Positions 2,876 through 29,643 of a DNA stretch of 30,191 nucleotides are shown piece after piece. Position numbers and translations under genes: made by a program. Source of the DNA: an uncultured Thermoprotei archaeon (GTDB lineage: Archaea; Thermoproteota; Thermoprotei; QMSL01; B3-G16). Positions within the stretch are counted from its first letter, which is position 1, and the number at the start of each line of letters is the position of its first letter. The notes beneath the pieces are model-generated. The model was not told where the DNA came from, did no database searches, and worked only from the letters and a program-made list of their open reading frames with translations. Where the stretch lies: NCBI GenBank assembly GCA_964517845.1, contig CAZFCQ010000016.1, forward strand, positions 1 through 30,191, read 5' to 3'.

Positions 2876-4243
2876 ATGCCTCTTAAATCCTTTTCTGAGC
2901 TTGATATGCTATTGGGAATGGAATGTTACGCTACTTCTTCTCCCCCTATACCTGGTATTATTCGCCTCAAGTTAGATGATTTTCAAGTTTTTGAAGTTGA
3001 TGAACGAGGCATCACTGTTAGAAGGTATGATATGTTAAGACAGTTTTATAGTAACATGGCTGGTCTCTATTCTTTATTTCTCCTAGAGAAGAAAGGACTT
3101 TCACATTACGAAGCAGTACGTATTATATGTAATTTACTTAATGTAGACTCAAGAAGCCTGAGTTTCTCAGGTATTAAGGATACACGTGCACATACGTGGC
3201 AGCTTTTCTCTGTAAGAGGTTATAGAAAGGAATGGAATAATTTTGATAAATTGCTATGCTTTTCTAAGGAACGTTTCCTAAGAGTTAGCTTCATTTCACG
3301 CTATCCATGGAGGCTTTACCCAGGCTGTAATAAAGGAAACTTATTCCATGTTGTAATAAGGAGAATACCTTCCTCTTCATGTATCGTATCACTTAGTAAA
3401 ATTCTTTCTGAGTTAAGAGAACTAGGAGGGATTCCTAACTTCTACGGTTATCAACGATTCGGTACAATTCGCCCAAATACACATATCATAGGCAAATATG
3501 TATTGTTAGGTAATTACAAGTCCGCAACTAAGGAGATCCTTACTTCAATCTATCCTTATGAAAGTGAGATTGCTAAGAAAGCTAGAGCCTATCTTAAGGC
3601 TACTTGGGACTTGAGAGGAGCTCTTAGGATATTTCCTAAATCTTTGTCTTATGAAAGGTTAATATTGAATTACCTAATAAAGCATCCTAACAAGTATGAA
3701 AGGTGCTTTTGTGTTCTGCCTAAGTGGCTTAGAGGTATGTTTATAGAAGCTTATCAATCATATCTCTTCAATAGAATCTTAAGTAAAAGGCTTTTACTTG
3801 GAATTTCTCTTAAGGACGTCATAGATGGGGATCTAGTGTATTTAACACATAAAGATGCTATTATTACTGCTACATCGAGCAATATATCTTATCTCCAAAA
3901 ACTTGTAGACCTAGAAAGAGGAGTTATATGTCAAAGAATCATAGGTTTCGATTATAAATTCCATAATTCCTTCATTGGAGAAATTGAAAGAGAGATTCTA
4001 GAGGAAGAAGGAATTAGTCCTTCTCACTTTTATAGTATTTCCCGATTCTTCCCTAGATTAAGAGGAGGATATAGAAAGATAACTCAATATGACTTTAGAA
4101 TAAAGATAACTACTCTCTTGGATGATGCGTTTCCTAGCTTTATTAAAGCCAAACTTGAGTTTTTCCTTGAAAAAGGCTTTTATGCTACGTCTTTCCTAAG
4201 GGAGATTATTAAGTCTGGAAATCCTATAAAAAGCGGCTTTTAA
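2876..4243 (+). CDS. truD: tRNA pseudouridine synthase TruD/Pus7 family
   Basis: 455 aa with DDFQVFEV near the N-terminus, the catalytic-Asp motif GIKDTRAHTWQ, and NFYGYQRFG. Confidence 0.85.
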   Translation: MPLKSFSELDMLLGMECYATSSPPIPGIIRLKLDDFQVFEVDERGITVRRYDMLRQFYSNMAGLYSLFLLEKKGLSHYEAVRIICNLLNVDSRSLSFSGIKDTRAHTWQLFSVRGYRKEWNNFDKLLCFSKERFLRVSFISRYPWRLYPGCNKGNLFHVVIRRIPSSSCIVSLSKILSELRELGGIPNFYGYQRFGTIRPNTHIIGKYVLLGNYKSATKEILTSIYPYESEIAKKARAYLKATWDLRGALRIFPKSLSYERLILNYLIKHPNKYERCFCVLPKWLRGMFIEAYQSYLFNRILSKRLLLGISLKDVIDGDLVYLTHKDAIITATSSNISYLQKLVDLERGVICQRIIGFDYKFHNSFIGEIEREILEEEGISPSHFYSISRFFPRLRGGYRKITQYDFRIKITTLLDDAFPSFIKAKLEFFLEKGFYATSFLREIIKSGNPIKSGF

Positions 4244-4263
4244 TGTAGTGTATTGGGTAAGAG

Positions 4264-4270
4264 TTTTATA
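4264..4270 (+). promoter_or_regulatory. TATA box candidate for tRNA-Lys
   Basis: TTTTATA ends about 29 nt upstream of the mature tRNA 5' end at 4300. Confidence 0.45.
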
Positions 4271-4299
4271 GGTGAGAACTTATCATCTAAACAGATGAG

Positions 4300-4373
4300 G
4301 GGCCGGTAGCTCAGCCAGGTAGAGCGCTGGGCTTTTAACCCAGTGGTCCCGGGTTCGAATCCCGGCCGGCCCG
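4300..4373 (+). tRNA. tRNA-Lys (anticodon UUU), intronless, CCA not encoded
   Basis: Hand-folded cloverleaf. Acceptor GGGCCGG/CCGGCCC, D stem GCTC/GAGC, anticodon stem CTGGG/CCCAG with loop CTTTTAA, T arm CCGGG-TTCGAAT-CCCGG, discriminator G. 74 nt, GC-rich against an AT-rich background. Confidence 0.95.
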
Positions 4374-4610
4374 CCTTCATTATCATCGGGAAGTTCTAGC
4401 AAAGCTTAAGTTTTCACAAACTGCTTCTAATAGAATTAATTAATGATGACTAATGCTTTATAAAAGTGACTTGGGCATGGAGATCTATAAAGTCCATTCT
4501 ATATTCATATTATATCTCTTTAGGAATTATTATTCAATAGTAATTAGGGAGGCTCAAAAGTCCTGTCTATTTACATAAGTCAAACATTGAGTTCCTTCCT
4601 TAACGATAGT

Positions 4611-4621
4611 AAAATTTATAT
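4611..4621 (+). promoter_or_regulatory. TATA box candidate for the rpoH-rpoB-rpoA operon
   Basis: AAAATTTATAT about 55 nt upstream of the rpoH ATG. It is the only strong TATA-like element close to the operon start. Confidence 0.4.
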
Positions 4622-4676
4622 CAATCAATCTTGAGTGTGGTATTAGCACATTTAGAGAACTTCTTAGCGTGAAATC

Positions 4677-4919
4677 ATGCCTAAAAAGTTTAATATATTC
4701 GATCATGTATTGGTGCCTAAGCATATACTTCTTAGTAAAGAGGAAGCCAAGGAGGTTCTGGAAAAATTAGGCATAGAGCCATGGCAATTACCCTGGATTA
4801 AAGCCTCAGATCCCGCAGCTCGTGCTTTAGGTGCCAAACCCGGTGATATAATCAAGATAATTAGAAAAAGTCCTACTGCTGGAGAGACTGTAGCCTATAG
4901 GTATGTAGTACCTGGATAA
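4677..4919 (+). CDS. rpoH: DNA-directed RNA polymerase subunit H (Rpo5)
   Basis: 80 aa, [26 protein letters not shown]...[33 protein letters not shown]...YRYVV. Sits in the canonical position ahead of rpoB. Confidence 0.92.
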
Positions 4920-4938: not shown

Positions 4939-7900
4939 TTGAGTAATATAAGTATAGATGATAGATGGTTCTTACTTGAGACTTTCATAAAAGAACATGG
5001 TTTAGTTAGACAACATCTGGATAGCTATAATGATTTTATAGAAAGACGCCTACAGGAGATAATTAATGAGCAGGGAGTCATAGAAACAGATATACCTAAT
5101 TATTATGTTAAGTTAGGAAAAATCAGAATAGGTAAGCCTAGAGTAAGAGAGGCAGATGGTTCTGAAAACGAAATCTTGCCCCTAGAAGCGCGTTTAAGGA
5201 ATCTAACATATGCTGCTCCAATATATCTAACTATGATCCCTGTCATAAATGGTGAAGAGAGAGAACCTATTGAAGTGTATATAGGCCAAATACCAATAAT
5301 GGTTAAGTCTGTAAAGTGTACCTTATACGGAATGAGTGAAGAGGAGTTAATGGCTGTAGGTGAAGATCCTAGGGATCCAGGTGGTTATTTTATAATAAAT
5401 GGATCCGAAAGGGTACTAGTAGCTCAAGAAGATTTAGCTATCAATAGAGTCCTAGTTGATAAAGGTGGTGCAAGTTCATCAGTAGCTTACACAGCTAAGG
5501 TTTTTTCAGCTACAAGCTCTGTACGAGTTCCAGTTACAGTAGAAATGCTAAAAAATGGCGTACTTTACGTATCCTTCCCTGCTATACCTGAACGTATCCC
5601 CTTTGCAATTATGATGAAAGCATTAGGATTTGAAAGTGACAGAGAGATAGTACTTGCTGTTAGTGACAATCCTGAAATACAAGAAGAACTTATTCCTACA
5701 TTAATGCAGGCTACTTCAATAAAGAACTCCGAAGACGCTCTCAACTACATTGGTAGTAGAGTTGCTATAGGTCAGACTAGAGAGTATAGAATCCAGAGGG
5801 CAGAACAAATTATAGATCGTTATTTCTTACCACATTTGGGTAGTACAAAGGAGGCGCGAAGAGCTAAAGGATATTATTTAGGTCAAATGGCTGAAAAACT
5901 CATAGAATTAGCATTAGGTAGACGTCTCCCAGATGATAAGGATCATTATGCTAATAAAAGACTTAAGCTAGCAGGGGATCTTTTAGCTCAACTATTTCGT
6001 GTAGCTTTTAGAACATTCTGTAATGATGTACGCTATCAACTTGAAAGACTTAAAAGTAGGAATAGAACCATTAACCTAGCTACAGTTGTTAGAGCTGATG
6101 TAATTACTGAGCGCTTAAGACATGCACTTGCTACAGGTAATTGGGTAGGCGGGAGAGCTGGAGTCAGTCAATTATTGGATAGAACTAACTATTTGTCAAC
6201 ATTAAGTCATCTACGTCGTGTGGTCTCTCCTCTAAGTAGAAGTCAGCCGCACTTTGAAGCAAGAGATCTACATCCAACACAGTGGGGAAGATTATGTCCA
6301 AATGAAAGCCCCGAGGGGCAAAATTGTGGCTTAGTTAAGAATCTGGCATTAATGGCTAGAATTACTGTAGGTACTGATGAAAAATCAGTACATGCAATAC
6401 TGGAGAAATTAGGGGTAATTCGAATTGATATTGCTCGTATGAAGGGTATTAAAGGTACAAAAGTATTCCTTAACGGTACATTGATTGGTGTTCATCTTAA
6501 GCCTGAAAAATTAGTTAAGGAGATAAGGCGGTTAAGAAGGCGAGGTCAATTAAGTTATGAAGTTAACATAGCTCATTACAGAACAAAGTATATTGATGAG
6601 ATATATGTAAATTGTGATGCTGGTAGGATCCAAAGGCCCCTTCTTGTTGTAGAAAATTGTGAACTTAAAATAAAGCCTGAACACATAGAGAAAGTACGAA
6701 AAGGAGAATGGGGCTGGTATGACTTAATCAAACGTGGTCTAATAGAGTACCTTGATGCAGAAGAGGAAGAAAACGCATATATAGCAATAAATCCTGAGGA
6801 TATAACGCCTAAGGTAACCCATGTAGAACTTGTACCTAGTGCTATATTAGGTGTCGTTGCCTCGATAATACCTTATGCAGAACATAATCAATCTCCACGT
6901 AACTCATATGAAGCGGCTATGGGTAAACAGGCTTTAGGTATACCCCTAATTAATTTCCGATACTATCTTGACTCTAGAATGCATTTACTTCACTATCCTC
7001 AAACTCCGCTAGTACAGACTCGAGGACTAAAGCTTATAGGATATGCAGAAAGACCTGCTGGTCAAAATATGATTGTTATGGTAAGTACTTGGGGAGGATA
7101 CAATATAGAAGACGCTATAATAATGAATAAAGCATCTATAGAACGTGGTTTGGCAAGATCCACCTTCTTTAGGACGTATGAAGCTGAAGAAAGAAAATAT
7201 CCTGGAGGAGAAGAAGATCATATAGAGATACCTGAACCTACCGTCAGAGGATATAGAGCATCTGAAGCCTATATACACTTAGGAGAAGATGGTATAGTTG
7301 AACCTGAAGCTTTCGTTTCAGGTGGAGAAGTATTAATAGGGAGAACCTCACCACCAAGATTCCTCGAAGAATATAGAACATTTGAGATGGCTAGTACTAG
7401 AAGAGATACATCAGTTAGTATGAGACACGGCGAACGTGGAGTTGTAGACTTAGTTCTAATAACTGAAAATGTTGATGGTAATAAACTCATCAAAGTACGC
7501 GTTCGTGATTTAAGAATACCCGAATTAGGAGACAAATTCGCATCACGACACGGTCAGAAGGGAGTAATAGGTATGATCGTTCCATTAGAGGATCTACCCT
7601 TTACAGAAGAGGGAATAGTTCCGGACTTAATAATAAACCCTCACGCTATTCCATCTCGAATGACACTAGGGCAGCTTCTTGAATCCTTAGGTGGTAAAGT
7701 TGCAGCTCTCTCTGGACGCTTCGTAGACGGCACCCCCTTCTGTGGTGAGAATGAAGAGAGCCTACGAAGAGAATTGTTAAAATTAGGATATCGGCCTGAT
7801 GGAAAGGAAACTATGTATGATGGAGTAACCGGAGAATTACTAGAGGTTCCTATATTTATAGGTATAGTTTACTATCAAAAGCTACACCATATGGTAGCTG

Positions 7901-21023: not shown

Positions 21024-22068
21024 TTATTTTCTAAAGAACTTATACTCCATACTCTTCCTTCTTTTCCATAAAGGCGGATATGTACCTCGTTTCATAATAA
21101 CTCTTACAGGTTTAACAGCAAGTCCTCTATCCTTTTTATACATATCCTCACTAGCCATAAGTGCCTCTCCAAGCGCTACCAATTCTCCTTTTTGGGTCAT
21201 TATTGCTACTAAGTCTCCTTTCTTGATTCCACTCTCTAATCTTAATATTCCAGGAATAGCTAGCGTAGCTCCGTTACATATAGCATCTACTGCAGAGTCT
21301 CTTATTACTACCTTAGGTAAATGTTCTACACCTCTCTCCATGGGTAATATTACCTTTCTGATCCACCTTTCATCTTTTTCTTCGATCCAGAACTTGTAAG
21401 CATCTACGACATCGTATAATGTAACTAAAGTTTCATCTTCTCTAAATGGCCCTACTCTTGTTCTCCTAAGTTCCTTCATATGTGCACCTACACCAAGTAC
21501 TTCCCCTATGTCATGGCAGAGCTTCCGCATATAGGTTCCTGCTTCACACCCTATTCTTAAGAGAACATCTCTTCCTTGAATCTCTAGAATACGTATGTAG
21601 TATACGCGCTTTATTCTTACAACACGTTTTACAGAAGATCTTAAAGGAGGTCTCTGGTATATGGGTCCTATGAATTCGTTAATGACTTTTTCTAGTTTGT
21701 CTTCGCTTACGTCTCCATGAAGTCTCATTACACATACATACTCTTTTCCAGCCTGAAGTAACGCACGTATTATTCTAGTTCCTCGACCTAAAGCTATAGG
21801 TAAAATACCAGAAACTTTAGGATATCCCCGCCCATAAGGGCTCTAGGGTCCCTCCATGACCTGCATTTTCAATATTAAGAATTCGCTTAACCCAGGCAAC
21901 TATTTCATGACTCGTAGGCCCTGGAGGCTTATCTAAATTTATTATTCCACTGTTTAATAACTCCTCTACGCTACGTTTATCAGGCGGGCATCCATATCTA
22001 GGATCTGTAGGCTCCTCATCTTTAATAAGTACTTCACGTTTAATATCTGCTGGTAACATATGCATCAA
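21024..22068 (-). CDS. cbf5: tRNA/rRNA pseudouridine synthase Cbf5 (H/ACA RNP catalytic subunit), interrupted by a 19-nt intron
   Basis: The 83-aa ORF (...KPPGPTSHEIVAWVKRIL...GHGGTLEPLWAGIS*) and the 234-aa ORF (MRLHGDV...PUA domain) are the two halves of one TruB-family protein, in different frames. Removing 19 nt gives [45 protein letters not shown]. Joined length is 1026 nt, 341 aa. Start candidates are TTG 22068, ATG 22065 and ATG 22059, just after GGTGAT. Confidence 0.9.
21824..21842 (-). other. BHB (bulge-helix-bulge) splicing-endonuclease-type intron in cbf5 pre-mRNA, 19 nt (boundaries +/-1 nt)
   Basis: RNA reading on the minus strand: GGGA|CCCU|AGA|GCCC-UUAU-GGGC|GGGG|AUA|UCCU. Outer helix GGGA/UCCU (4 bp, one G-U). 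Central 4-bp helix CCCU/GGGG (one G-U). Two 3-nt bulges, AGA and AUA. Inner hairpin GCCC/GGGC. Cutting after the second nt of each bulge joins CUAG to AUCCUAAA, giving CUA GAU CCU AAA (L D P K). Confidence 0.8.
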
Positions 22069-23321: not shown

Positions 23322-23825
23322 TCACCTTGTCTTAATACCAAGGAATCTCCTAAATATAAACGATACTGCAAATATAGCTATAAAATACCAACTGTTAAAG
23401 TCTAACCATCTTCCCAGAAGGGGAAAGTATGCCACCTCGCTTGTTGCTATAACCCTATTAAAAAGATTCCATAATGCTAAGAGAGGGAAGAAGAGGACTA
23501 CCCAAGCTCTCATACTAGCCTTAAAGACCTCAACTTGCAATCGCTCTATTCTTCTCTTTCTTTTATTAAGTCTATCTAGAGTCTTCTTATCTCCACTTTT
23601 CAGTGCCTTCATATACTTACTTCGCCATTCCATTATTTCACTTTGATATCTATTCAACTTGTCTATATCAGTCATTGCTCTATAGATTATGGCCGTTATA
23701 ACTTGGATGAAGATGCAAAAGAGTAGGACTGTTATGGCTGCATATGGTCTGTAGGCGAAAGGGCCTAGGAGTCCTCGTATTATTTCTGCTAATGATTGAA
23801 GAGGATCCATAAGTAATTCACCCAT
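23322..23825 (-). CDS. DUF106/EMC3-like membrane protein (archaeal YidC/Oxa1-like insertase family)
   Basis: 167 aa with three hydrophobic segments flanking a basic coiled region (KYMKALKSGDKKTLDRLNKRKRRIERLQ). Conserved position upstream of rpl34e. Confidence 0.72.
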   Translation of the reverse strand: MGELLMDPLQSLAEIIRGLLGPFAYRPYAAITVLLFCIFIQVITAIIYRAMTDIDKLNRYQSEIMEWRSKYMKALKSGDKKTLDRLNKRKRRIERLQVEVFKASMRAWVVLFFPLLALWNLFNRVIATSEVAYFPLLGRWLDFNSWYFIAIFAVSFIFRRFLGIKTR

Positions 23826-23890
23826 TAGATGGCTTAATATTTTTACTTTTATTACCCTTTCTTAAGCCTTTTAAGTTACAGAGGTTAAAA

Positions 23891-23900
23891 TTTAAATATA
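23891..23900 (+). promoter_or_regulatory. TATA box candidate for EF-1alpha
   Basis: TTTAAATATA about 45 nt upstream of ATG 23943. The SD GGTGAT (23931-23936) is 6 nt before the ATG. Confidence 0.45.
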
Positions 23901-23942
23901 ACTCGTATTTAAGGGATTCTTGCTAGGTGGGGTGATAACTTA

Positions 23943-25271
23943 ATGTCGAGTAGCTCAAAGCCTCATCTCAATCTGGTTATACGGTGACCTTAAGGTCACC
24001 GGACCAAAATAGGGCATGTAGATCATGGTAAGTCAACTACAATGGGTCACTTAATATACCTACTAGGACAATTCGATGAAAGGAAATTCAAAGAATTGGA
24101 AGAAGAAGCTAAGAATCTAGGTAAAGAAAGCTTCAAATATGCTTGGATTCTTGATAAGTTGAAGGAAGAGCGTGAGCGTGGTCTAACAATAGACTTAGCC
24201 TTCTTAAAATTCGAAACTAGAAAATACTTCTTCACTATAATTGATGCTCCAGGTCACAGAGACTTCGTTAAAAACATGATAACTGGAGCTTCTCAAGCTG
24301 ACGCTGCAGTCCTAGTAGTGTCCGCTAAACAAGGAGAATTTGAAGCTGGCATGAGCCCCTTAGGACAGACAAGGGAGCATATATTCTTAGCTCGAACAAT
24401 GGGAATAGATCAAATGGTAGTCGTAATAAATAAGATGGATACTGTTAACTGGGATCGTAACCGATATGAGGAAATCAAGGCCCAACTAACTAAGCTATTA
24501 AGGATGTTAGGCTACAAAGTTAATAAGATTCCATTTGTACCTACATCTGGCTGGACAGGTGATAATCTAGTAGAACCGAGCAAGAACATGCCATGGTATA
24601 AAGGACCAACATTACTTGATGCGTTAGATATGTTGGAAGAGCCGCCAAGACCCATAGATAAGCCACTAAGAATACCCATACAGGATGTATACTCTATAAG
24701 TGGTGCTGGTACAGTCCCTGTAGGCAAAGTCGAAACTGGAGTATTAAAAGTAGGCGATACCGTAGTATTTATGCCAGCTAATAGAAAGGGAGAAGTTAAA
24801 TCTATAGAAACACACCATGTAAGGATACCCGAAGCTAAACCTGGTGATAATATAGGCTTTAATGTTAAGGGTGTCTCAAGAACTGATATTAGAAGAGGTG
24901 ACGTAGCAGGACATCCTGACAATCCACCAACAGTAGTTGAAGAATTTACTGGACGAATCATAGTACTATATCATCCAACAGCTATAGGCGAGGGTTACAC
25001 TCCTGTAATGCACGTACATACTGCAACTGTTGCTACACGCTTCGCTGAATTAGTAGCTAAACTAGATCCTAGAACTGGTGCTAAGCTAGAGGATCGTCCC
25101 AAATTCCTCAAACAAGGTGATGTAGCAATAGTTAGATTCAAACCACTAAAACCAGTTGTAGTCGAGAAATACGCAGAGTTCCCACCATTAGGAAGATTCG
25201 CAATACGAGACTCTGGAAGAACTGTTGCAGCGGGAACAGTGATAGACACTAAGCCCATGAAAATATCCTAG
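23943..25271 (+). CDS. tuf: translation elongation factor EF-1alpha (aEF1A), interrupted by a 27-nt intron-like element after codon 13
   Basis: The track ORF (24042.., MGHLIYLLG...) lacks the G1/P-loop. Upstream, ATG 23943 encodes [13 protein letters not shown], then CGG TGA CCT TAA..., then in frame [17 protein letters not shown]. Removing 27 nt gives [24 protein letters not shown]..., with the same spacing as the [21 protein letters not shown] form recalled for Sulfolobus. Joined length is 1302 nt, 433 aa. Confidence 0.88.
23981..24007 (+). other. BHB-type intron candidate in EF-1alpha pre-mRNA, 27 nt (boundaries ambiguous within the flanking AUA repeats)
   Basis: RNA: GGUU|AUA|CGGUGACC-UUAA-GGUCACCG|GACC|AAA|AUAGGG. 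Central 4-bp helix GGUU(23975-78)/GACC(24002-05), one G-U. 3-nt bulges AUA (23979-81) and AAA (24006-08). Perfect 8-bp inner hairpin, part of a 20-nt perfect palindrome 23982-24001. The outer exon-exon helix is weak, so this is a relaxed BHB. Two in-frame stops lie inside (TGA 23985, TAA 23991). Confidence 0.72.
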
Positions 25272-25342: not shown

Positions 25343-25651
25343 ATGGTCCGTAAAGCTCGAATACGCTTAGTCAGTACCGATTACCGCAAGCTTAATGAAA
25401 TTTGTGAAGAGATAAAGAATATTGCAAGAAAAACAGGTGTACGCATCTCAGGTCCTATCCCCTTGCCAACAAAAAGACTTGTAGTAGTCACTAGAAAAGC
25501 TCCTTCAGGAGAAGGTACTCATACATTTGACCACTGGGAATTAAGATTACATAAGCGACTTATTGATATGGATGCTGATGAACGTGCTCTTAGACAATTA
25601 ATGAGAATCCGAGTACCAGAAGATGTACATATAGAAATAGAACTCATATAG
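25343..25651 (+). CDS. rps10: 30S ribosomal protein S10 (uS10)
   Basis: 102 aa, [20 protein letters not shown]...[19 protein letters not shown]...[17 protein letters not shown] lies 5 nt after GGTGAT. Confidence 0.95.
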
Positions 25652-25868: not shown

Positions 25869-26807
25869 TTAACTTACAAACAAGTCTATATACTGATACT
25901 CCCCTAAGTAGCTCTCTAGCCTGCAGTGAGTGTTCTCGTCTAGCCATATTATAGGGATGAACTTGTTTCCGTATATGATTTTATTTAACTTTGCAAGTCC
26001 CTCAATATGCTTAATATTAAGGCCTTGATCTAAGGAATTAATTTCCTCTAGACTTAACTTCAATTTTACAAGATCTTCAATAATCTCCTGTATGACATCG
26101 TAATTAAAGCCTAGATCTCTAAGAGTCTTCACAAGATGTTTAACTTCAGCATTCAAGCAAGCAGCACCAGAGCACTTATGATATAACATTACATGTACTC
26201 TACTAAGATATTTTTCTAAGACCTTAGGCTCCTGGCCAACATATCTTGATAGTGGGTAAGGAAATACAGCTGCTATAAGTTTAACATCAAGCTCCTTAGC
26301 TCTATCATATAGTATTGATAATAGGTTTTCTACATGCTCAGTTCTAGCGTACGCTAGCTCATCTAAAAGTTCAAGTAAGCCCTGCCTCGTTGGTCTACGT
26401 AAAATATTCTTAAATGAATCTCTAAGATGTCTAAGCTTTGAATATAACTCTAAGCTATAGCTACAGAAACACGTTGTTAGGAAATATAACCCATCTATAG
26501 GTGATGGAAGTCTAATAGCATCGAGCATGAGCTTTTTATAGCCTAATGAATGAGCTCTCTCTAAGGCCTCTAAAGAATAGTTAATGATGCCTGGCTTAGC
26601 TATACAGCCACTATTGTTAAATGCAAAGAGATATTTCCTCCCATATATATCCTCGACACCCTCATCGATATTCATAGCTTTTGGGACCCATAAAAGGGGG
26701 ACTAATTTCTCATCAAAAGTATTGATCTTATCAAGGCTAGTATAAATAACATCGGGCTTTAGCCCTAAGTTTTTTATCTTTGAAACTTTGCCGAATACTC
26801 CTATCAT
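25869..26807 (-). CDS. hypothetical protein (312 aa), family not recognised
   Basis: Long uninterrupted ORF with the same codon style as the core genes. No motif I can name. The alternating pattern could fit an alpha/beta barrel, but that is a guess. Confidence 0.6.
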   Translation of the reverse strand: MIGVFGKVSKIKNLGLKPDVIYTSLDKINTFDEKLVPLLWVPKAMNIDEGVEDIYGRKYLFAFNNSGCIAKPGIINYSLEALERAHSLGYKKLMLDAIRLPSPIDGLYFLTTCFCSYSLELYSKLRHLRDSFKNILRRPTRQGLLELLDELAYARTEHVENLLSILYDRAKELDVKLIAAVFPYPLSRYVGQEPKVLEKYLSRVHVMLYHKCSGAACLNAEVKHLVKTLRDLGFNYDVIQEIIEDLVKLKLSLEEINSLDQGLNIKHIEGLAKLNKIIYGNKFIPIIWLDENTHCRLESYLGEYQYIDLFVS

Positions 26808-28377: not shown

Positions 28378-29643
28378 ATGGAAATAATCTCTTTGATGGA
28401 GCCTCATCGATTACCTATAATAGACCTTAGAGGAAATGTAGGAAGCCCATGTATAGTGTACAACCCATTTGAACCGTGTTACTACATACTATTCTTAGGC
28501 GAAAAAGAACCAGCACAGGCACTAAGAGAAGTATGGGTAGCACCAATAGAAAAAGACCTCACAATAGACTTAAACAATGCGAAAAGACTAGTACAACGCG
28601 ACTCACACATAGAAGCCCCTTCCTTCAAAGGAACCCCTATCCTAGTACCTCTAAAACGTGATGCCCATCTTAGTGCAATACGCGGAATATTTAATGCCAC
28701 AAGAAGAGAATACATCCTCACATTATCAATAGGTAAGCACACCTACGTACTCTACTTCGACGAAGACTGGAATCTCAAATCTTACAGAAAAGTATACTCG
28801 AACTCTGGAGACCACGGATTTCCCTTAGCTCCAATAGGAGCCTATGGAAGAGAACATCAAGCACTAACAACTATACCAAAAGGACCCTTAGTCAAACTTG
28901 GATACTTTGACAATATAGACTCTCCAGAGAAAGTCTCTCTAATATTAGACAGAGAATATGCCTTTCAACATGGTTGGGCAAATGATGTATGCGATATAAC
29001 ACTATTACCCAGAATAGCCCTACTTTATGAAAGTGATGAATTCGCCCAATGGAAAGTAAAAATAGCATTAGGTCCACCAACAATAGACTTCGGTCACCAT
29101 AAAAAACCAGGTATAGAATTCAACATAGGATTCCTAGTAGCATATCTACAATCTATCCTACCATTCCACTCACACTACGTCCAAATAGGACACCCACATT
29201 ACACTGTATATCCCGATGGAAAACCAAAGCTCTTAGTAGCATGCTTCAGAGACACTTGGAGCTCAAGACCAGACACAGGTAGAGAAGGCTATCGGCACGA
29301 AATACATGCAGTATATCTCAATAACACGGACATCTTCAACCCAAAAACCTACAACACACTAAAAGACACGATAATATCCCCGCAAAGAGGACAAACAAGC
29401 AAGTGGTATTACATTCAACAAGCTACGAAAGTAGTTCTCCTCATAACAGGAATCAAAAATACAACAAAAATTCAAGTAAATGAAGCTAGCTCCATAGAAG
29501 AGGCACTAGACCAAGAATACATAACTACCACACTTCCGGAAACCACAACCCCAACAAAAATCACTATAGAAAATCCCGCACCCACAATAAGAATCAAAAC
29601 TCAACAAAAAGGAACAAAAATAACCATGATAGCCTATTACTAA
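28378..29643 (+). CDS. hypothetical protein (421 aa), no recognised family; Thr/Pro-rich C-terminal tail
   Basis: 1266-nt open frame in AT-rich DNA, with only short ORFs on the other strand. No signal peptide is evident. Weak resemblance to beta-propeller glycosidase-like folds (SPCIVYNPFEPCYYILFLG); this is a guess only. Confidence 0.55.
   Translation: MEIISLMEPHRLPIIDLRGNVGSPCIVYNPFEPCYYILFLGEKEPAQALREVWVAPIEKDLTIDLNNAKRLVQRDSHIEAPSFKGTPILVPLKRDAHLSAIRGIFNATRREYILTLSIGKHTYVLYFDEDWNLKSYRKVYSNSGDHGFPLAPIGAYGREHQALTTIPKGPLVKLGYFDNIDSPEKVSLILDREYAFQHGWANDVCDITLLPRIALLYESDEFAQWKVKIALGPPTIDFGHHKKPGIEFNIGFLVAYLQSILPFHSHYVQIGHPHYTVYPDGKPKLLVACFRDTWSSRPDTGREGYRHEIHAVYLNNTDIFNPKTYNTLKDTIISPQRGQTSKWYYIQQATKVVLLITGIKNTTKIQVNEASSIEEALDQEYITTTLPETTTPTKITIENPAPTIRIKTQQKGTKITMIAYY

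Follow-up and report, generated by a model that had tools for sequence, protein, structure and literature searches.

The tuf gene of an uncultured Thermoprotei archaeon from a hot environment (QMSL01; B3-G16), which encodes the translation factor EF-1alpha, very probably contains a bulge-helix-bulge (BHB) intron in its coding sequence. The gene is on contig CAZFCQ010000016.1 of assembly GCA_964517845.1, and the whole of this 30,191-nt stretch, here called the window, was analysed. Judging from the sequence, positions 23981-24007 would be cut out of the transcript of the single housekeeping EF-1alpha gene by the tRNA splicing endonuclease EndA, and the exons would then be ligated. We infer that this removal would be constitutive rather than regulated. 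The evidence lies in the structure of the insert, its conservation among relatives, the logic of the reading frame and the selection acting on the exons.

The gene begins with an ATG at 23943, and its frame is broken after the residues KPHLNLVI and resumes in frame at the P-loop stretch. The interruption, which falls between the codons of the beta1 strand and those of the P-loop, is 27 nt long and contains two in-frame stops (TGA and TAA). A sequence-only reading of the window had placed an insert of this length at these positions, with the same stops and a BHB-like fold, and both the sequence and RNAfold bore out every element that it listed. Exon 1 (23943..23980, plus strand) encodes 12 residues and ends with the bases AU that open the Ile13 codon. 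The predicted intron, ACGGUGACCUUAAGGUCACCGGACCAA, occupies 23981..24007 of the plus strand, and exon 2 (24008..25271, plus strand) supplies the third base of the Ile13 codon and continues with the P-loop through the stop codon. Excision one base later (23982-24008) would produce an identical mRNA.

Removal of the 27 nt gives an open reading frame (ORF) of 433 aa, whose match to the EF-1alpha equivalog TIGR00483 covers positions 4-425 of the 427 in the profile. Spliced in silico, the junction reads GTT ATA ATA GGG and encodes the peptide LNLVIIGH, which is the same in intronless orthologues such as L004, L018, L021 and P0013. The predicted spliced junction sequence is GUUAUAAUAGGG / GGTTATAATAGGGCATG in the window and GGTCATAATAGGACATG in relatives with a 25-nt insert. 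The residue spacing at this junction had been described as typical of archaea, and it proved to be so: three residues separate LN[LIVM] from GH in 80 of 80 intronless loci among the matches listed. Unspliced mRNA would yield either a 14-residue peptide, which translation of the sequence confirmed, or, as the sequence-only reading had also foreseen for reinitiation at 24042, a protein without the P-loop. The longest uninterrupted tuf ORF (24042-25271, 409 aa) starts at position 24 of TIGR00483 and lacks GHVDHGKS.

A Shine-Dalgarno-like GGTGAT, found by reading the sequence at 23931..23936 (plus strand), stands 6 nt 5' of the tuf start codon. Relatives with the intron and EF-1alpha genes without it have the same motif ahead of the start codon, indicating that exon 1 holds the true translation start.

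Fold of the tuf insert and calibration on cbf5

The central helix H of the insert joins the exonic strand GGUU (23975..23978) to the intronic strand GACC (24002..24005); these and the following elements are on the plus strand. Next to the exonic strand is the 3-nt 5' bulge AUA (23979..23981), with the predicted 5' splice site at 23980/23981. The inner hairpin h' (23982..24001) reads CGGTGACC-TTAA-GGTCACCG in DNA and has an 8-bp stem, CGGUGACC/GGUCACCG, closed by the loop UUAA at 23990-23993. The 3' bulge or loop AAA (24006..24008) contains the predicted 3' splice site at 24007/24008. The minimum-free-energy structure from RNAfold consists of the 5' bulge, the hairpin and the central helix, with the 4-bp H extended by a U-A pair and the 5' splice site within a 3-nt bulge closed by helix. 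Each of the five variants of the element folds in this way at minimum free energy and leaves the 3-nt 5' bulge unpaired (5/5). The folding z-score is -4.0 for a 50-nt segment, with 0 of 200 shuffles folding equally well, and -2.7 for a 76-nt segment.

The outer exon-exon helix is weak, as the sequence-only reading had noted in calling the motif relaxed. It has at most 3 bp including a G-U, between UCU (23972-23974) and AGG (24011-24013). U23974 takes A24006 as its partner in the minimum-free-energy fold, leaving the other bases in an internal loop. Because of this weak outer helix, the tuf motif belongs to the relaxed HBh' class recognised in PMC6379350.

By itself the tuf motif is not statistically striking. 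A strict motif (4-bp helix, 3-nt bulge and at least 7 Watson-Crick stem pairs) was observed twice, as against an expected 0.61 per shuffled window, and a loose one (stem of at least 5) has 74 chance occurrences. The significance of the tuf motif comes from its being placed exactly on the break, restoring a conserved gene to the residue, and being kept in relatives.

About 2 kb from the tuf insert, the cbf5 gene of the window contains a 19-nt BHB intron, AGCCCUUAUGGGCGGGGAU (21824..21842, minus strand), in a full hBHBh' motif at 21852-21819 (GGGA-CCCU-AGA-GCCC-UUAU-GGGC-GGGG-AUA-UCCU). The two interruptions had been proposed to share an architecture, and the cbf5 insert does show the same layout and follow the same cut rule. 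Excising 21842-21824 restores GGTLDP, and the resulting Cbf5, of 338 aa, fits its equivalog model from end to end. With the cut placed after the second bulge nucleotide the codon reads as the catalytic Asp, and with it placed after the first, as Tyr. The boundary thus separates base 1 from base 2 of the catalytic Asp codon, as it does in experimentally grounded cbf5 introns (PMC2738675). The rule applied to tuf, a cut after the second nucleotide of each bulge, was calibrated on this intron and on the published cbf5 boundary (PMC2738675). The clade that has the tuf element also carries this classical cbf5 intron; in relatives its length is 18, 19 or 20 nt, and each time the catalytic Asp codon is split after its first base and L-D-P is restored (L081, L082, L086, L113 and L118). 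Its presence groups the lineage with the cbf5-intron-bearing crenarchaea (Desulfurococcales/Sulfolobales, PMC2738675).

Gene calling of cbf5 fails in some of these relatives, owing in part to the known intron. There is no call in L081 808-1898, L086 has fragments of 78 aa and 74 aa in 1286-2068, and the near-identical L113 has calls of 257 aa and 74 aa in 1040-2068.

In the proposed mechanism, the exonic GGUU of the tuf pre-mRNA would pair with the intronic GACC to form the 4-bp helix H. Between H and the 8-bp intron hairpin, the 3-nt bulge AUA would hold the 5' splice site, and the AAA of the opposite strand, four base pairs off in the poorly closed loop of a relaxed HBh' motif, would hold the 3' splice site. 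EndA would cleave after the second bulge nucleotide on both strands, and an RNA ligase (RtcB) would join GUU AU to A AUA GGG. Ligation would recreate the Ile codon and a continuous beta1-strand and P-loop sequence.

Conservation of the insert within one Thermoprotei clade

Comparison with close relatives, which the sequence-only reading had proposed, found the tuf element at the same site in every examined sequence of one Thermoprotei clade (82-100% protein identity), in five sequence variants. Two variants are 27 nt long: that of the window, with loop UUAA and H strand GACC, and that of L081 and L106, with loop CCUU and H strand GGCC. Three are 25 nt long. One is found in L082-85 and L118 (AUU bulge, stem CGGUGGC/GCCACCG, loop GUUA, AGA bulge), one in L086-88, L113 and L114 (loop AUUA, GGCC), and one, at the same site, in L116 and L117. 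A length of 25 nt is not divisible by 3 and puts exon 2 out of frame with exon 1 in the shorter variants, and only the same cut rule restores the frame. A cut after the second bulge nucleotide produces a 433-aa protein with LNLVIIGH from 27-nt and 25-nt variants alike. Symmetric cleavage would therefore give a functional EF-1alpha in both length classes, and the same rule restores Cbf5.

All four pairs of helix H are kept in 6 of 6 sequences, as G-C, G-C, U-A or U-G, and U-G or C-G. The hairpin stem is 7 bp long in the 25-nt relatives and shows one A-U to G-C compensatory change, while the loops vary (UUAA, CCUU, GUUA and AUUA). Standard pairs make up 96.7% of the pair cells in the alignment, as against 23-49% when the partners are slid. 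Altogether there are one compensatory double change and four pairs with compatible one-sided changes, and the helices have been maintained.

The exons of tuf have a ratio of non-synonymous to synonymous divergence (dN/dS) of 0.02-0.04. Synonymous divergence is saturated between the subclades, and the intron stems are retained. Among the variants, six of the eight codons for KPHLNLVI in exon 1 differ synonymously and none differs non-synonymously, a pattern of purifying selection in that frame. Two assemblies made independently from populations that are 99.8% identical, L093 (JGI) and L119 (ENA), contain an identical element; together with the divergent relatives, these exclude an assembly artefact.

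One 3-kb JGI contig of the 25-nt subclade, L115, has a deletion of about 50 nt (1490-1520) that removes the 3' splice site and the entire P-loop. It spans from the GCCACC of the intron hairpin to the GCCACC of the downstream Gly-His-Leu codons, and it reflects either the collapse of a repeat during assembly or a dead allele.

In a database of 5.8 billion proteins, all 12 clusters of at least 82% identity (P0001-P0012) were called without the N-terminal exon, at 409, 410, 420 or 362 aa, and no full-length protein of at least 82% identity was found there. These clusters form one clade in a neighbor-joining tree, with the full-length P0013 as its sister, and the insert was present in the DNA of all six that were inspected. 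A 409-aa call is not in itself a sign of an intron: P0017, P0030 and P0048 (73-77% identity) proved to be intronless genes with miscalled starts.

A contig scan with the spliced protein provided loci from 80 GTDB species (Thermoprotei, Bathyarchaeia, Methanomethylicia, Nitrososphaeria and others). None of these 80 TACK and related species, at no more than 77% identity, has the tuf insert; they are the species among the matches listed, and the clade of the window is not one of their sources. Five apparent misses among the 80 loci were GHVDNGKS variants of the P-loop. P0070 was left out of the site check, as its contig (L092) begins 2 nt before the gene. A metagenome pattern scan for any insertion of 15-45 nt at the site returned 20 matches, of which five were real, all from this clade. 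The remaining 15 were not inserts and were mostly due to the Shine-Dalgarno GGTGAT hitting the 5' anchor. One was L107, a WOR8 metagenome contig in which an unrelated EF-1alpha has a tandem duplication of its P-loop segment, CTGGTGGTCATCGGTCACGT...GGTAAGTCCACC (524-601), most likely as an assembly artefact. Among the fetched loci, then, the tuf intron is confined to the clade of at least 82% identity, and it was probably gained once, in the ancestor of this uncultured clade, and kept since.

Doubts and alternative explanations

Several points weigh against the presence of a spliced intron in tuf. Splicing of this gene is predicted here from the sequence, and a query with the spliced N-terminus found, above 80% identity, neither a protein from a spliced transcript nor an intronless close relative. 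Our view is limited to the 30-kb window, and a second, divergent tuf gene could exist elsewhere in the genome. The intron starts only 38 nt after the start codon, so that ribosomes could in principle arrive before splicing. The element does not form a strict hBHBh' motif, as its 3' bulge has no solid outer helix, and in the folds some bases of the presumed 3' bulge pair and lengthen H, which becomes 5 bp long in the window and 6 bp long in L082. Relaxed motifs are reported to need an (alpha-beta)2 or epsilon2 endonuclease (PMC6379350), and cleavage of the tuf motif would accordingly require one of these broad-specificity enzymes. Neither the window nor any fetched contig has an endA gene. Given its cbf5 intron and its place in the Thermoprotei, the host probably has an (alpha-beta)2 enzyme (PMC2738675). 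Finally, the covariation comes from two deep subclades only and so amounts to a single compensatory event.

Translational bypassing would leave the mRNA unspliced, with take-off at an Ile codon and landing on AUA. The precedent is phage T4 gene 60, in which a 50-nt coding gap is bypassed during translation. The tuf insert resembles that gap in containing a stable hairpin and a UGA stop one codon past the take-off site, and in the window identical AUA codons flank it. Nevertheless, we consider bypassing highly improbable. Its product, LNLVIGH, has the single Ile that the sequence-only reading had named as the mark of bypassing, and would be one residue short of 80 of 80 homologues among the matches listed. 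The flanking codons match in the window only: take-off in the 25-nt relatives would be from AUU and landing on AUA. AUU and AUA are read by different tRNAs in archaea, so re-pairing in these relatives would fail. Bypassing also has no need of the GGUY/GRCC helix or of a fixed 3-nt bulge, yet both are conserved, and the same genome has this architecture in a bona fide splicing substrate, cbf5.

The insert could also be the footprint of a small insertion in an inactivated tuf copy, the cell using another tuf gene in the part of its genome that lies beyond the window and outside our view. The two in-frame stops would fit, as would the flanking ATA, which resembles a target-site duplication in the window and had been pointed out as a direct repeat in the sequence-only reading. 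However, the 25-nt variants do not conserve this repeat but have ATT...AGA ATA, a point against an insertion footprint and also against a codon-matched bypass. A dN/dS of about 0.03 combined with saturated synonymous divergence argues against a pseudogene, and no decay is seen, with 433 codons in all variants. Exon 1 is in frame, and its KPHLNLVI codons change only synonymously. The gene also occupies the canonical tuf-rps10 locus, and the protein database has no full-length protein of at least 82% identity. The chance that this copy is dead seems very slight.

Alternatively, translation could start downstream, at the AUA after the insert or at the ATG at 24042, with exon 1 serving as a leader or an upstream ORF. 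Gene callers do give models of 409 aa and 420 aa. The 409-aa product, however, would be without the P-loop GHVDHGKS and hence without GTP binding, and a product started at AUA would have neither the beta1 strand nor a Shine-Dalgarno sequence. Exon 1 keeps GGTGAT and an ATG or GTG, and a downstream start would leave unexplained why its amino acids are conserved under synonymous change. Such a start is scarcely credible for this gene.

Least probable of all is programmed frameshifting, in one or two steps, or stop-codon readthrough across the insert. The exon-2 frame is open across it in the 25-nt relatives, where it reads TWSFGGVSHRTRIGH. In the 27-nt variants, however, ribosomes would have to read through two stops or leave the frame and return to it, and there is no evident slippery site. 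The protein would gain 8-9 residues in the strand before the P-loop that are in no homologue among the matches listed, and one such mechanism cannot fit both length classes, whereas splicing can.

Gene neighbourhood and known splicing systems

The setting of tuf is a conserved archaeal ribosomal and translation neighbourhood. A minus-strand run of genes, S11-S4-S13-cbf5-L14e-cmk-L34e and then an EMC3-like gene (23322-23825, minus strand), is divergent from tuf-rps10, which is followed by a tRNA-Ser. The rps10 gene (25343..25651, plus strand; an ORF with a match to Pfam Ribosomal_S10) is directly 3' of tuf. This order is found in all relatives, and being canonical it marks the tuf gene of the window as the housekeeping copy. 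Between the EMC3-like gene and tuf, at 23885-23919, is an AT-rich perfect palindrome, TTAAATA-N7-TATTTAA. It was the sole other motif picked up by the strict helix-bulge-hairpin scan, and probably represents a back-to-back pair of TATA-box-like promoter elements. Two ORFs near tuf have no Pfam match, one of 312 aa (25869-26807, minus strand) and one of 416 aa (about 28393-29643, plus strand); the latter has a counterpart at L119 14352-15602.

The window has no second copy of the tuf intron sequence. Its only Rfam matches are two tRNAs, and neither the window nor the contigs of the clade contain intron-containing tRNAs that might serve as extra comparators. The ORFs at 2476-2859 and 2876-4243 were considered as an intron-split gene and rejected, each being complete (PTH2 and TruD, respectively). 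A blind scan of the window for BHB motifs with ORF restoration recovered both tuf and cbf5, with too many false positives for the recognition of further introns.

Archease and RtcB make up the RNA ligase system by which exons cut at a BHB motif would be joined. In L090, an intronless locus of about 77% identity, archease and rtcB are directly 3' of tuf-rps10 (5761-7703), and in L091 (73% identity) archease is in the same place (4239-4703). In the intron-bearing clade this place is occupied by the tRNA-Ser and unrelated genes.

Full-text literature searches, outside which most subscription-journal papers fall, returned no report of an intron in an archaeal EF-1alpha gene. Apart from a 5' untranslated region (UTR) case in Haloferax, the cbf5 mRNA intron is the sole one reported (Schwarz et al. 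2020, PMC7714728). Predictions for other genes, in a rudivirus paper (SIRV1) and in a chapter on Sulfolobus genomes, are unconfirmed (Yokobori et al. 2009, PMC2738675), and a structural paper of 2025 cites for pre-mRNA substrates the cbf5 work alone (PMC12397907). The literature therefore agrees with the sequence-only reading that cbf5 is the only documented gene with a BHB intron in its coding sequence (PMC7714728, PMC2738675).

The tuf element has much in common with the crenarchaeal cbf5 intron (Watanabe et al. 2002; Yoshinari et al. 2006; Yokobori et al. 2009, PMC2738675). Each is a very short BHB intron that interrupts coding sequence and splits a codon beside a motif that the protein cannot do without (in Cbf5 the catalytic Asp, in EF-1alpha the P-loop), and each is presumably removed by EndA and an RNA ligase. 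In both, lengths differ among relatives by non-multiples of 3, and the genes are often mis-annotated as split or truncated. Unlike cbf5, the tuf host gene encodes a core, highly expressed translation factor, and its intron is 38 nt from the start codon. The tuf motif is a relaxed HBh' in all five variants, whereas cbf5 in this genome has the full hBHBh' form. The cbf5 intron is known from two orders, and the tuf intron has so far been found in one narrow uncultured clade.

The predicted action of EndA on a messenger RNA also has a counterpart in Haloferax volcanii, where the HVO_1309 mRNA has a BHB intron in its 5' UTR (Schwarz et al. 2020, PMC7714728), although that element is in an untranslated leader and in a euryarchaeon with a homodimeric enzyme. 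With the BHB introns of archaeal tRNA and rRNA, including the relaxed hBH and HBh' forms that occupy non-canonical positions (Marck & Grosjean 2003; PMC6379350), the tuf element shares the 4-bp helix and the 3-nt bulges on opposite strands. Its elements follow in the same order as in the canonical tRNA 37/38 intron (exon H strand, 5' bulge, intron hairpin, intron H strand, 3' bulge), and its size is inside the tRNA-intron range of 11-175 nt. Unlike tRNA introns, it is in an RNA that has no tRNA body for recognition and in which the reading frame constrains the splice sites.

A more distant parallel is the splicing of HAC1 and XBP1 mRNA in eukaryotes, a cytoplasmic and non-spliceosomal process carried out by IRE1 and RtcB, in which the XBP1 intron is 26 nt long. 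There, as proposed for tuf, a protein enzyme removes a short coding intron at sites defined by stem-loops, an RtcB-type ligase acts, and the product hinges on whether the frame is restored or changed. Unlike tuf, HAC1 and XBP1 depend on IRE1 and another RNA motif and form a regulated stress switch. This splicing is mentioned in PMC13149111 and PMC8718801. By extension, tuf splicing might control EF-1alpha synthesis and translation capacity through EndA and RtcB/archease, much as IRE1 and RtcB act on XBP1 and HAC1, and the protein genes of this lineage might hold a wider, unannotated set of BHB introns; we think this doubtful. In the window, 2 of roughly 35 genes are protein-coding genes with BHB introns.

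The truncated annotation of tuf extends to public protein models. RLF16051.1, RLF18734.1 and MCD6096070.1 are 409-aa models that start from the internal Met, and MCD6509466.1 is a 420-aa NCBI model that starts from the ATA after the intron; all four are without exon 1. Marker-gene phylogenies and completeness estimates based on tuf are affected by such truncation, and similar hidden introns may go unnoticed elsewhere.

For more than 20 years cbf5 has been the sole archaeal protein-coding gene documented with such an intron in its coding sequence. The tuf gene would be only the second coding-sequence host for BHB introns, in a core translation factor, and involves no new mechanism. As a natural substrate outside tRNA, its intron would be the second in which EndA recognition of relaxed motifs can be considered, and its position 38 nt from the start codon raises the question of the order of splicing and coupled transcription-translation. 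A second, independent case, in the abundant and essential EF-1alpha, suggests that archaeal mRNA can gain and keep such introns more generally.

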